A DNA stretch of 64,000 nucleotides from the NCBI GenBank assembly GCA_951406725.2, contig OX597830.1:11160001-11224000 (forward strand), written 5' to 3'. Below, one piece after another: positions 3,060-56,466 of this stretch. Under the pieces are notes generated by a model. It did no database searches. It saw nothing but the letters and a program-made list of their open reading frames with translations, and had not been told where the DNA came from. This DNA comes from Octopus vulgaris. Its lineage: Eukaryota. Within the stretch, counting starts at the first letter, position 1. Every line of letters begins with the position of its first letter. The translations under genes were made by a program, and so were the position numbers.

Positions 3060-3290
3060 ATAAAATAACGAAGATGTACTTGCATAGCGAGTGACTTGAT
3101 CTGAGATCGTGTGCTGGAACGAAAACAATTCCAGTGTGGAAGGTGTTTATAAGCCATTTCAGAAACACACAAAAACCGTTAAATTCACTTCAACATTTAA
3201 ATTTAATTTGTCAAAATATTTTCATCGCTTTGAGACCGTGACCTGTTCACTGACAAAGCTTCATGCTGCATCTCTTGTTAAAATTAAATA
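3060..3290 (-). mobile_element. Probable Penelope-like pLTR remnant carrying a hammerhead-like motif
   Basis: Non-AT-rich island in an AT-rich intron, containing the motif at 3207-3257. Confidence 0.45.
3207..3257 (-). ncRNA. Variant minimal type I hammerhead-like motif (G3-C8 core)
   Basis: Minus strand: TTTGTCA-GTGAACA-G-GTCAC..GCGAT-GAAA-ATAT-TT-TGACAAA; 7-bp stem I. Confidence 0.5.
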
Positions 3291-3404
3291 AATACTAAAT
3301 ATAAAGTATTGGAGTATATTTATTAAAAAATAGATATTGAAAAATAATTTGTAATAAAATATTGAAGCACTTCTGTCATGTTGTTTTTTAATTTTTCTGT
3401 TTAG

Positions 3405-3508
3405 GTGGCAATTGGCCAGCTACAATTTCTTTATGGTTAGTTGAGAGTCTGACAATCAAGACTTGTTCTTCAGATAATAGTTCTTGTTCTGATGCAGCAA
3501 ATGCTGAG
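3405..3508 (+). CDS. SLC33A1: Acetyl-CoA transporter 1, penultimate coding exon
   Basis: tttag|GTGGC...GCTGAG|gtaag; phase-compatible with previous exon; (G)GNWPATISLWLVESLTIKTCSSDNSSCSDAANAE. Confidence 0.95.
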
Positions 3509-3723
3509 GTAAGGAAATTCTTTTAATTGCTTCTTAAATATTCTTAGATCTAATCATTGCTATCACCAATAAAAATGTCTGCATCTGTGACAAAGATTTT
3601 CAGTTATAGAAAAAAAAAATTATTTAATCTGATTCTTTAAGGCTAATGATGATTTTCATTTTCAAATGCATAATTTTAGAGACAATAGAATATTAGTATC
3701 TACAAATGGAATTTTCACTCTAT

Positions 3724-4040
3724 AGGTGCAGGTGTGGCTTGTAGTAAAAAGTTTGCTTCCCAACCACATTGCTCTGGGTTCAATCCCACTGTGTGACACC
3801 TGAGGCGAGTGTTTTCTACATCCCCTGGCCAACCAAAACCTTGTGAATGGATTTAGTAGACATCTCTCATTTCTATATGTATGTGTGTTACACTCTCTTT
3901 ATGCTGACATTGCACATAGTTGTCAATGAGTGTTGTTGTAATGCAAATGGTGTACTTTGTTTCTAATATTCTGGTCATGAGAAATTATTACCTTAATTGG
4001 AAACAGGTGAAGGTTGGCAACAGAGAGGGCATCCAGGTAT
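3724..4040 (+). mobile_element. Diverged tRNA-derived SINE (head as in 63381-63779)
   Basis: AGGTGCAGGTGTGGCT...GGGTTCAATCCCACTG head; ends near an RTE-like GGGCATCCAG block. Confidence 0.6.
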
Positions 4041-4291
4041 TGGGTTGGACAGTTTGATGAAAACTGGTAAGCATTCATTGGGCTGGTGTTTATCTCCAGT
4101 TTCCATACTATTTAAGAGATGAGAAATAAACCTCTCCTTGTATAGAATGTTTGTTTATTATAAGTTACCTTTCCTGGGGAAGGAACTGAACTCTGCACTT
4201 GAAGCTAGAATATCCATCAATTCAGACTGATGAGAATTGTGTGTGAAGTTGGAACTTCTTTGTGTTAATGCTTGTTGAGTAAAGAAAATCA

Positions 4292-4548
4292 TCTCTTGTG
4301 AAAGGTAGGAGAGTCCAGTTTGCTGGACATTGTTGTAGAGCTGAAAAAGAGGTAATTTCTACTCTCCTCCTCTGGAAGCCATCTACTCGCAATGCCAGAG
4401 GGCGCACACTCTCCTACCCTGATGTAATCTCCAGGGATACAGGCATCCAGCAACAGGACCTCTGTAATGCTATGATGGACCGTGAAGTCTGGCGTAGCAT
4501 AGTAAATTCCATTGTCTCGACCACGGTCGAACAATGATGATGATGATG
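4292..4548 (+). mobile_element. 5'-truncated RTE-clade LINE with TSD
   Basis: KGRRVQFAGHCCRAEKEVISTLLLWKP...DREVWR, (TGA)n tail; TSD AAAGAAAATCA at 4281-4291 and 4549-4559; near-identical to 8650-8886. Confidence 0.85.
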
Positions 4549-52830: not shown

Positions 52831-53108
52831 AGTCTTCATAAGCAGAGTTATTTCCATGAATTTAGAACAGCCAAGTAACAAATGTTAAGCTACAATATGT
52901 GTGATTTTTATAAACAAAATATGGTTATAAGATACTGTGATTAAATGTCCTTCTTCCTTCCTACCCACAAAAAATTATATAAACCACATGCTCACAAAAA
53001 CCATTGCAGTTTGTGCGGAGATGTGGATGAGAGGCTAGTTTTATTTTTTGCTTTTTTTGTTTGTTTTTTTTTAGTATGCCTTCCTTATACTCTGTGTCAG
53101 TTTATATA

Positions 53109-53506
53109 TAGTGATGGTGAATTATTTCCTTGTTGGTTTTAAATTGTTGCTAGCCACCTTGATTTATTTTTGTAATTTTCACATTGTCATTTTGTGAAAT
53201 CAGCCACTGATTTCAGTGGTATCCATGATACTGACTGGGTGAGTTGGCCTCTACCAGCTGTGATGGAGTGAGCATTACTGATGAGTATTAATTCCCTATA
53301 CGAAATTACCATGCTAATCTAATGCATCTTGTTCAGTGTGGAAATGGTTTTCTCACCTGTCAATATAAAGAGACCATATGCTTTTGTGGCTAAGGAGTCT
53401 GTGACTCTTATTTCTAGTAATGCTGGCACTCACTGCACCCTTTGCACTCTTAGTGATGGTGAATTATTTCCTTGTTGGTTTTAAATTACTGCTAGCCATC
53501 TTGATT
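53109..53506 (+). repeat. 342-bp unit with 56-bp terminal redundancy and a degenerate hammerhead (retrozyme/pLTR-like)
   Basis: 53109-53164 repeated at 53451-53506; CTGATGA-GTAT..ATAC-GAAA at 53278-53305. Confidence 0.6.
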
Positions 53507-53718
53507 GACGGATGCTAATCAAATGGGCTCCATGTAAGTTGGCCATTTTACATGTTTAAAAGTTTTTATTGTCAAATATTTTATGTTTAAAAGTTGTGCA
53601 AGAACACTCACTACAAAACTTGATAAATATTTACATAGAATTTCGATCCTGTGTGGGTGAAATTTCCAAAATTTTGAAGGCTTTTGTGGATTCATTTTAG
53701 CCATTTTTCATTTCGAAA

Positions 53719-56190
53719 ATGGCGACTGGAAACCACATGGCCAGTGCACAAGTCATGCGGAATGCTATTGAGGCACTACCGCTACCATTAGCTGCTGAAC
53801 CTGACAGCTTGAATGCTACCAACATCACCACCACCACCACCAAGGACAAAACAAACTTCACGGAAGTGATAAAACAAAAGAGAACCATCGTAAAGTTCTC
53901 TGCACAAGAAATAAACAACACAAAGGTACTTCTCACCAAGGAAGGAGATAATTTACATCTCCACATTCCACAATACATCATGGAAAACACAAAAAAAAAA
54001 ACAATCATATATAAAGTTAACAACATGAAGACAAGATGACCGGAAAGTGCACCACAGCAAAAAATAGAAAAATGTCTTCACCCTGTATGGGCTCACAAGG
54101 AATACATCAATTGGTGGCATAAATTTGGCACAGTCCAAGTACGATTTTCCACATTAGCTATTCATACAGATGATTTGGTGATGATACTGACTTATTTAGG
54201 CCAGAGAGTGATGAAAATCACAATAAAAAATGTGCCACCTGAAGTAGAAACACAATGGCTAAGCTCTGCCATCTGCTTTGAAATGGAAGAGACAAACATT
54301 CTGGAAATCACTGTTCAAGAACAGCAAAACTGTGTGGGGAAAAACAATTCAATTATTTCTTCAAATTGATGAAATATCAACAGAGAAGATACCCACCGCT
54401 ATAGAATTGCCAGAAGGCTACAGACTGTATGTAGTGGTGGAGAGCAGGTGGCCACGCTGCAATCTGTGCAGCAGCGAAACGCATTTGAAAAAGAATTGTC
54501 CAACCACTGCACAACAAGAGCAACAACAACAACCACCACCACAGCCAAAACATTCCAAGAAAAAAGCACTACTACCCACACCACCATCAACACAGAAGAT
54601 GACAGAAGAAGCACTATAAGCAAATCCATCAACAATCAAAAATAATACAACACCTGAGAAAATACCAACACTACCAACAACAGCAAGAAATAAATAAACA
54701 GAAAAACAGAAAAATACAAAAACTGATTCCTCATCCCCTTTACTGCACACACCACACACAAACAGTCAACAACCAGCATCAACGAAAACAACTACACAAC
54801 CACTTATACAAACATACATAGAAACCTACAACATACCCCTACCCACTTCTGATTCCTCAGAAATTTCGGCGGAGGCACAATGAGGCATCAGAGCCACCAT
54901 TCGGTCTCAGGTAGATGAACAGGGGTGCGAATTACTCAAGCCAAGTCAAATGTGTTAGGCCTTTCAACAGCATTTTGCTTGACTGTTTGGGATGAGTGTC
55001 GAGCGAGAATGCAGGGTGGACTTCAGTACCTACCTGCACAGCCTGCCATGACTCAACAAGAGAGGCAAGGTGCTGTGAAGGTGCCACCATGGTGGGAGAA
55101 TGCTCAAGGGACAAATCGCCAGGTGGGTAGGGGTATGTTGTAGGTTTCTATGTATGTTTGTATAAGTGGTTGTGTAGTTGTATGCCAGACCTGTTTGGTG
55201 ATATCTTGCCAGCAGTGTACTGCAACTGGCAGCATCTCCGGTTTTGTGAGCTGAGGAGCCATAACACTGCTGAAGAAAGATCCAAACAAGAGGGACGTAA
55301 TAGATAACTTTAGGCCCATCACTCTGCTCAATGCAGATTTGAAAATTTTGGCCAAAGTGTTAGCCAAGAGGTTGGCACTTGTCATCAAGAAACTGGTCGA
55401 CAAGGCACAAATGTGCGCTGTGCTGGGCCGGATCATCCATGACAACTTCCATCTGATGCACTACATCATAGACAGAGTAGTTAAGGAACCTAGCATAGGC
55501 GGGGCCCTGATCAATTTGGATCAGTCCAAAGCTTTCGATAGGGTAGACCATCGATACTTGGAGGCTGTTCTCATAGCAGCTGGTTTTGGTCCTGTCTTCC
55601 ACAGCTGGACAGCTGCCTTGTACAGAGGCATCCGTTCAGTAAGTCATGTAAATGTACATCTATTGAGACCTTTTGACATTGCATGTTCAGTCCATCAAGG
55701 ATGCCCCTTCTCGTCGCCTGTGGAAGCAGGTGATGCTGAGAGGCATTCCGCAAGAATTGGGATGTGGGACAAGTGTGTCCACATACGTGAACTACGTCAC
55801 TGTCATAGTGTCTAGCCATGAGCACACCAAGCTGGTCAGCGAGACACTGAAAGACTATGAAGCAATAACAGGAAAAAAAAATCAACCCAGAAAAGTCAGT
55901 GGGTTTGCAACTCGGCACCTGGAGAAACAAGTCATTGCTGTCCAACAGCACCTCCATTGTGGGATGCTGGACCAATGGTCTGGTCGAGTTGCTTGGGGTC
56001 TGGTTTGGTCCAGACCCCCAAAATGGAGAAGAACTGGAATGAGATAATGAGTAAGGTGGTCACTCTTGCCTGGAAATGGGCTGAGAGGAAGCTGTCCCTA
56101 AAAGGTTGGGCGGAGATAACGAACACATACATCGCGTCCGTCATCTACTGCTGCCTGGCCATCATGCCTTGTCCTGACCCTACCATCACC
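53719..56190 (+). mobile_element. Decayed Tx1/L1-clade LINE (ORF1 with zinc knuckle; RT fragment)
   Basis: CNLCSSETHLKKNC (CCHC); RPITLLNADLKILAKVLAKRL, LDQSKAFDRVDH, VHQGCP, RKLSLKG; endonuclease apparently missing. Confidence 0.85.
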
Positions 56191-56418
56191 AAACTGGAAT
56201 GCATTCAAAATATGAACTCCTATTGGAATTTACATACCACGGACAAGAAGCATTTCTACCACTTCTACACACCACTTTCCTTGGATAATGAAACTGCAAC
56301 AATAGCATCTTTATATATTTTTATTTTTACTTTTATTTCTATTTTTATTCTCTTATTTCCCTCTATACTCCTTATTTCCTTCCTGAACTCTAATATTACT
56401 CTCTGACCATCTCATATC

Positions 56419-56466
56419 GTCTCTGATGAAGGGATATCCCTAATATCCCAGAAACAGCTGTAAGGC
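56419..56466 (+). ncRNA. Minimal type I hammerhead motif
   Basis: GTCT-CTGATGA-A-GGGATA-TCCCTAA-TATCCC-A-GAAA-CAGCTG-TA-AGGC. Confidence 0.8.

Follow-up and report, generated by a model that had tools for sequence, protein, structure and literature searches.

Eight hammerhead motifs in a 64-kb stretch of the Octopus vulgaris genome are very probably the ends of seven separate retroelement families

The DNA studied here is a stretch of 64,000 nucleotides of the Octopus vulgaris genome (assembly GCA_951406725.2, contig OX597830.1, positions 11,160,001 to 11,224,000 of the forward strand), hereafter called the window. An original prediction had placed about eight type I hammerhead ribozyme motifs in it. 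All eight were recovered, with exact spans within 2 bases of those predicted:

3207 to 3257, minus strand: type I hammerhead with a G3-C8 swapped core, an extra G after A9, a palindromic stem III and U17; predicted cut after 3214
6096 to 6142, minus strand: type I hammerhead with a U4C core, U10.1.U11.1 and a GUC site
6250 to 6296, plus strand: type I hammerhead identical in sequence to 6096-6142
42351 to 42429, plus strand: type I hammerhead with a canonical core, a 38-base loop II and a GUA site
43033 to 43168, plus strand: type I hammerhead with a 12-pair stem II, a long loop and a palindromic stem III; 3' end of a Penelope-like element
43774 to 43824, minus strand: type I hammerhead with U10.1.U11.1 and a GUA site
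53272 to 53325, plus strand: type I hammerhead, canonical, with stems of 6, 4 and 4 pairs; most copies of the family have a fully palindromic stem III
56419 to 56466, plus strand: type I hammerhead with A.A at 10.1/11.1 followed by 7 pairs, a palindromic stem III and a GUA site

The type I order of three stems around a conserved core was found at all eight sites, and the consensus core (C3 U4 G5 A6 N7 G8 A9, G12 A13 A14, A15.1-U16.1, H17) at five. Family-wide departures from this core are G3-C8 at 3250 and U4C at 6136/6256. The motif at 53271, called degenerate in the original prediction, proved to be canonical. The one at 43035 has a loop II of about 90-100 bases, and only 2 stem I pairs adjoin its core. 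In our view these eight hammerheads very probably mark the ends of retroelements from seven distinct families, three of them Penelope-like and coding, and four without an open reading frame (ORF).

The alternative that the motifs are chance matches in AT-rich repetitive DNA was assessed with local dinucleotide shuffles of the window. A strict descriptor, fixed before any relatives were examined, found 2 sites in the window, against a mean of 0.025 (maximum 1) in 40 shuffles. Allowing a mismatch at 10.1-11.1 gave 4 sites (0.0 in 40 shuffles), and allowing U4C gave 6 (0.43 in 40 shuffles). A widened descriptor, tuned after the sites were known and on the window itself, found exactly the eight sites and no others, against 0.18 (maximum 2) in 50 shuffles. 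Because of this tuning, it was applied to 60 arbitrarily placed 10-kb stretches of the genome (2.8 Gb in 227 contigs), which together make up 599,800 bases; it returned 21 motifs there and 0-1 in the five shuffles made for comparison. Two points speak for chance: the late tuning of the widest descriptor, and an Rfam scan of the window, in which none of the 123 matches at E ≤ 10 was a hammerhead family and all eight sites were missed. Genome-wide, Rfam Hammerhead_1 matched 6 of 73 scored candidates. Nonetheless, the comparisons with shuffles and with 600 kb of new DNA refute the chance reading, family-wide conservation also argues against it, and we give it practically no credence.

In the arbitrary stretches the density was about one motif per 29 kb, confirming the high density that had been predicted. 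This extrapolates to about 98,000 motifs genome-wide (95% range 61,000-150,000), i.e. about 10^5, and the octopus genome is probably among the most hammerhead-rich animal genomes. The main text of a 2026 octopus repeat annotation makes no mention of ribozymes (PMC13282606). The window is roughly a 3.5-fold local cluster, the Poisson P of 0.002 for its density (about 3.5 times the average) being overstated through descriptor tuning and nesting. It is repeat-rich, 48% of it matching the other genomic loci compared. Rather than one coordinated RNA system, the eight motifs represent separate insertions, five of them nested at TA-microsatellite sites within other elements. Their proposed location inside host introns was not borne out: when 145 window frames (10 + 135) were compared with Pfam, only mobile-element or weak, sub-cut-off matches and no host exon or gene were found, a search blind to exons shorter than 48 codons and to those that belong to no Pfam family. 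The sole intron identified is that of a hAT transposase, described below. Tandem arrays of period 26 and 39, unrelated to the hammerheads, lie at 62083-63032 and 10294-10936.

The eight sites fall into seven multi-copy families, designated 3250, 6256 (the 6096/6250 pair), 42358, 43035, 43818, 53278 and 56423. For each family, first-look candidates were counted and 40 were scored. There were 2855 candidates for 3250, 2445 for 6256, 992 for 42358, 757 for 43035, 1386 for 43818, 154 for 53278 and 2367 for 56423. Among the 19 best copies per family, chosen by likeness to the window, the core was intact in 18 for each of 3250, 6256, 42358, 43818 and 56423, in 17 for 43035 and in only 9 for the old family 53278. 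Little beyond the core is common to the seven families. Stem changes with pairing kept were seen in copies (G-C to A-U in stem II of locus L026) and in sister families of 56423 (L326, L371, L383). This agrees with the predicted existence of several families whose stems differ while pairing holds, and the flanks are indeed multi-copy, not single-copy, in all seven. Two 3'-end peaks, 60-110 bases apart, were present in four families; among 43035, 43818 and 56423 they were clear only in 43818.

Three families lead to Penelope-like elements, of which the window also contains the following pieces:

41563 to 41880, minus strand: disrupted GIY-YIG endonuclease end belonging to the Penelope-like element that carries the 43035 motif; inverted in the window copy
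43690 to 44570, minus strand: 5'-truncated 3' end of a young Penelope-like element (family 43818), with a microsatellite-rich 3' untranslated region (UTR)
56206 to 56540, plus strand: 5'-truncated 3' end of a third Penelope-like element (family 56423), at a TA run of the hAT intron

As judged from sequence, 43035, 43818 and 56423 are 5'-truncated 3' ends of Penelope-like elements, as other copies have a GIY-YIG endonuclease frame upstream of the motif in the same orientation. Linking the flanks to Penelope reverse transcriptase (RT)/GIY-YIG ORFs, a check suggested with the original prediction, succeeded for these three families. The endonuclease frame and the motif were co-linear in 4 of 12 other loci for 43035 (L254 and L263 at 85-89% identity, L259 and L264 at 72-75%) and in 2 of 25 for 56423 (L277, L280). 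For 43818, whose copies are 98-100% alike over the 200 bases searched, the sequence 3.5-4 kb upstream of the motif contains, at L190-L192 (3 of 6 extended loci), the end of an RT/GIY-YIG frame in the same orientation; a UTR rich in simple repeats lies between the two. The RT region was found for 43035 (L259) and 43818 (L075, L190), and not for 56423. The frames upstream of the three families match full-length proteins of 725-753 amino acids, in which an RT domain precedes the endonuclease region; that of 43818 is 36% identical to two such proteins, of which one matches the Pfam RT domain weakly. Variable 5' truncation and inverted upstream pieces occur in all three families. We presume that the motifs of the window resemble those of the Nematis clade of Penelope-like elements.

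Two candidate partners were rejected. One is a Penelope-like family of very recent age that has a 753-codon RT/GIY-YIG frame (L177:1286-5057, plus strand, and elsewhere); of its 11 long loci, L177 alone contained a window family, in the form of a nested inverted pair. The other is its sister at about 84%, for which only the query's own locus, among 30, had a window family. In the 753-codon family a distinct frame of 367 codons precedes the long one by about 410 bases, the gap being perhaps an intron, and the descriptor found no hammerhead of its own within several kb downstream. At L188:3952-5094 (minus strand), about 30 bases past an inverted 43818 copy, we observed an intronless 381-codon ATG4 protease frame (PF03416, E 3e-102), which may be a retrocopy, or the 43818 element may have inserted beside a single-exon gene.

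No coding frame was found in the units of 6256, 42358, 53278 and 3250. The first two are represented in the window by:

5893 to 6457: head-to-head inverted pair of a unit of about 365 bp without an ORF (family 6256); the arms match at 133 of 144 bases
42070 to 42614, plus strand: inverted 3' piece (about 42070-42227) and direct piece (42228-42614) of a 546-bp unit without an ORF (family 42358)

Head-to-tail trimers were found for both, with a period of 365 at L010 for 6256 and of 546 at L202 for 42358. The 6256 core gave 75 exact 35-base matches with U4C versus 5 with U4. In the window, the 42358 unit interrupts the 3' UTR of the 43035 element at a TA run. In loop II of the 42358 motif, nearly all copies carry GTAAGT, a splice-donor-like sequence (42385-42390, plus strand, in the window); an intron overlapping a hammerhead is known in Drosophila Penelope (PMC4209133). 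Families 6256 and 42358, known here as genomic DNA only, fit animal retrozymes in their apparent organization. The predicted Penelope/retrozyme type holds, with GIY-YIG frames upstream in three families and trimers in two. The description as short noncoding retroelements holds for the four ORF-less families, and fails for the three that are 5'-truncated ends of protein-coding elements.

These tandems bring up the possibility of an active circular-RNA (retrozyme) system, in which units are transcribed, cut by paired hammerheads, circularized and returned to the genome by rolling-circle reverse transcription, a cycle established for coral, mussel and axolotl (PMC7229834). Head-to-tail trimers in 6256 and 42358, partial repeats (1.16-1.4 units only) in 53278 and the young copies of 42358 (96-99%) agree with it. 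It would cover at most three of the seven families, however; the window copies are single, truncated or inverted, 3250 had no same-strand tandem in 30 unselected copies, and read-through or template jumps also make tandems. We regard such a system as possible but less likely than not. A monomer-to-monomer joint of 42358, seen in the contigs of 1 of 4 runs (run type unrecorded), is explained equally well by genomic tandems and is not used as evidence. Separate insertions of Penelope-like and probably Penelope-dependent ends remain our preferred explanation.

Family 3250 is represented by one element:

3065 to 3278, minus strand: SINE (short interspersed element)-like element of about 210 bp without an ORF, with two alternative 3' ends

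Copies start 5-25 bases ahead of stem I, end at either of two sites about 60 bases apart, often include an inverted piece and sometimes have a target duplication. G3 and C8 were present in 47 of 55 anchored copies (a set including five fetched because they differ at both positions) and C3-G8 in none. A 33-base pattern had 1,440 exact matches, and the same pattern excluding G3 and C8 had 5, none of them C3-G8. A distinct A3-U8 subgroup was considered and rejected, as the 3 of 5 double variants concerned have no shared diagnostic changes and are compatible with chance. Eight 3250 insertions, in 6 of the 60 arbitrary stretches, point to a copy number around 10^4. On contig C1, 10 of the first 30 matches lie within a carrier with TC and hairpin-CTAG ends, inserted between A and T, which we take to be a Helitron signature. 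Pieces of a Helitron-like family, a relative of which carries 3250, were noticed in the window at 5304-5697, 31501-32016 and 58164-58550. Elsewhere in the genome, two identical U3-A8 motifs lie 1.3 kb apart (L338:7049 and 8384, plus strand), so that C3-G8, G3-C8 and U3-A8 cores are all represented.

C3G/G8C double mutants, including one of a Penelope hammerhead, are partly active in vitro (PMC11167929, PMC8495972, PMC3884650). A published G3-C8 variant is less active with C17 than with G17 (data not shown in the source), and such a C17 penalty in the G3-C8 context may explain the U17 of 3250, which would avoid mispairing of G3 with C17.

The 53278 motif lies inside a DNA transposon:

51009 to 58702, plus strand: decayed hAT DNA transposon with 15-bp inverted ends and an 8-bp target duplication at 51001-51008 and 58703-58710
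53109 to 53506, plus strand: 343-bp unit and 55-bp partial repeat (family 53278), in the hAT intron, on the same strand as the transposase

An intron from about 52005 to about 56608 interrupts the transposase: a lobster protein aligns to residue 231 at 52004 and again from residue 229 at 56609, and the GT and AG ends are visible in L199. The 15-bp ends were found in the window, L200 and L201, with the 8-bp duplication alike at 6 of 8 positions in the window and 7 of 8 in L201, and absent from L200. Fifteen homologues at 46-76% identity are named 'BED-type domain' or 'HAT C-terminal dimerisation', and Pfam-A gave no hAT match for the transposase fragments. Identity is 76% to the lobster protein, 63-66% to fish proteins and 49% to an octopus protein, a pattern that hints at horizontal transfer. 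A broken LINE (long interspersed element) fragment occupies 53508-56200 (plus strand; RT PF00078 at 55255-55812), between the two hammerhead elements of the intron.

Among 29 copies found by hAT exon 2 alone, 12 hold the 53278 unit whole or in part. Five others (L217, L218, L219, L222, L230) have only simple repeat at the site of the unit, L208 retains only a 56-bp repeat, and other copies carry unrelated insertions. The filled copies share identical start and end positions of the unit, and because of these common junctions they point to a single insertion into the hAT intron, followed by spread through DNA transposition. A tree of 31 hAT exon-2 rows, drawn for this single origin, was star-like, with no strongly supported branch. 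Filled and empty copies together mean that a hammerhead unit can gain copies without an RNA step of its own, so copy number is not usable as evidence of ribozyme activity. The 53278 unit also occurs outside hAT (L052, L247-L252) and was therefore mobile on its own. A diverged subfamily (L247-L252) was seen inside duplicated segments of several kb, many on contig C31, and these are a third way of passive spread. Two families thus appear to have been spread further as DNA-transposon passengers: 53278 in the hAT intron and 3250 in the Helitron-like carrier.

From published Penelope biology (PMC11167929), a GIY-YIG nuclease would nick AT-rich DNA, and the RT would begin copying 3' of the hammerhead, at either of two places. 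Early termination would usually leave short ends with one hammerhead, and strand switching would give the inversions. With its stem III short and palindromic, a lone hammerhead in the genome would cleave weakly, chiefly where a tandem transcript brings two copies together, and most copies are probably inert. For the four ORF-less families, copying by these Penelope enzymes is likely; as they yielded no partner ORF, such mobilization is argued from insertion footprints only.

Several observations weigh against this account. The partner ORF was absent from the loci examined for 6256, 42358 and 53278 and from all 30 unselected copies of 3250, and no full-length intact partner of the seven families was retrieved. 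Copy 5' ends fell at the predicted cut in 2 of 103 pieces for 3250 and in 0 of 233 for the other six families, most loci having been selected for spanning the motif; this is in line with uncut RNA as template. Minimum-energy folds gave the complete hammerhead fold for none of the eight monomers, and only 1 of 9 frog retrozyme dimers was cut in a published test (bioRxiv 10.64898/2026.07.22.740005).

The lack of a pile-up of copy ends at the cut would also suit noncutting relics or protein-binding structures, their fold being kept for recognition by a Penelope protein and not for cleavage. The family-wide core departures (G3-C8 with U17, U4C, mismatched 10.1-11.1) fit with this, as does the absence of effect of hammerhead mutants on in vitro insertion by an Anolis element (PMC11167929). 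Yet some activity is reported to be kept by the C3G/G8C double mutant (PMC11167929) and with U4C and U10.1.U11.1 (PMC3088659), and all other core letters are retained across seven otherwise unrelated families. We think it unlikely that the motifs are relics, and hold to ends of separate retroelements whose hammerheads, if they cleave at all, would do so weakly.

A further proposal, which we find somewhat unlikely, is that a working natural G3-C8/U17 hammerhead defines a SINE-like Penelope parasite (about 10^4 copies) missed by standard descriptors, with about 10^5 motifs genome-wide, some of them spread as hAT or Helitron-like passengers and not through retrotransposition; lying in an intron on the sense strand, such a passenger hammerhead could cleave the pre-mRNA of the transposase. 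The G3-C8 family offers a natural test of a swap found in the searched papers only as a laboratory mutant.

The hammerhead class is already published, and the window is an ordinary, dense sample of it. Metazoan Penelope-like pseudo-long terminal repeats contain minimal type I hammerheads with an extra base after position 9 (here in 3250) and a short palindromic stem III (PMC4209133). That system and ours also have in common a predominance of single truncated copies, pairs on opposite strands separated by 100-700 bp, many sequence families in one genome and a 3-8 covariant family. The covariant is U3-A8 there and G3-C8 here; several families here have U.U or A.A for G10.1-C11.1, and two have a long loop II. 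Coelacanth and frog have 4,000-9,000 motifs, versus about 10^5 estimated here with descriptors that are not the same. Animal non-LTR (long terminal repeat) retrozymes (PMC7229834; bioRxiv 10.64898/2026.07.22.740005) share with our families ORF-less, low-GC units (343-546 bp), one type I hammerhead each, head-to-tail repeats (two families here) and a proposed Penelope-like dependence. Here the evidence is genomic sequence, with arrays of trimers at most and 3250 never seen in tandem. The 546-bp unit exceeds the 150-450 bp of PMC7229834 and is within the 51-972 bp of bioRxiv 10.64898/2026.07.22.740005. Endonuclease-containing (EN+) Penelope-like elements (PMC8557442; PMC11167929) also have an RT then GIY-YIG frame, a 3'-end hammerhead, two 3' ends, an inverted upstream piece and AT-rich or microsatellite targets; in contrast, the 3' UTRs here are of 1.5-4 kb and rich in simple repeats, and the tails are of 60-110 bases instead of 30-40.

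Literature searches on hammerheads and octopus turned up no description of these families, and those on G3-C8 only laboratory mutants and natural U3-A8 hammerheads (PMC4209133, PMC3088659); the supplements of these two papers and Lunse et al. 2017 may include octopus examples or list G3-C8. Among the papers found for hammerheads together with Penelope, Helitron, hAT and retrozymes, none described passenger hammerheads in the text searched. The laboratory C3G/G8C mutants (PMC11167929, PMC8495972, PMC3884650) have the same swap of the tertiary 3-8 pair as 3250, where it is natural, has become fixed (the family has 1,440 exact copies or more) and is accompanied by U17 and the extra base.

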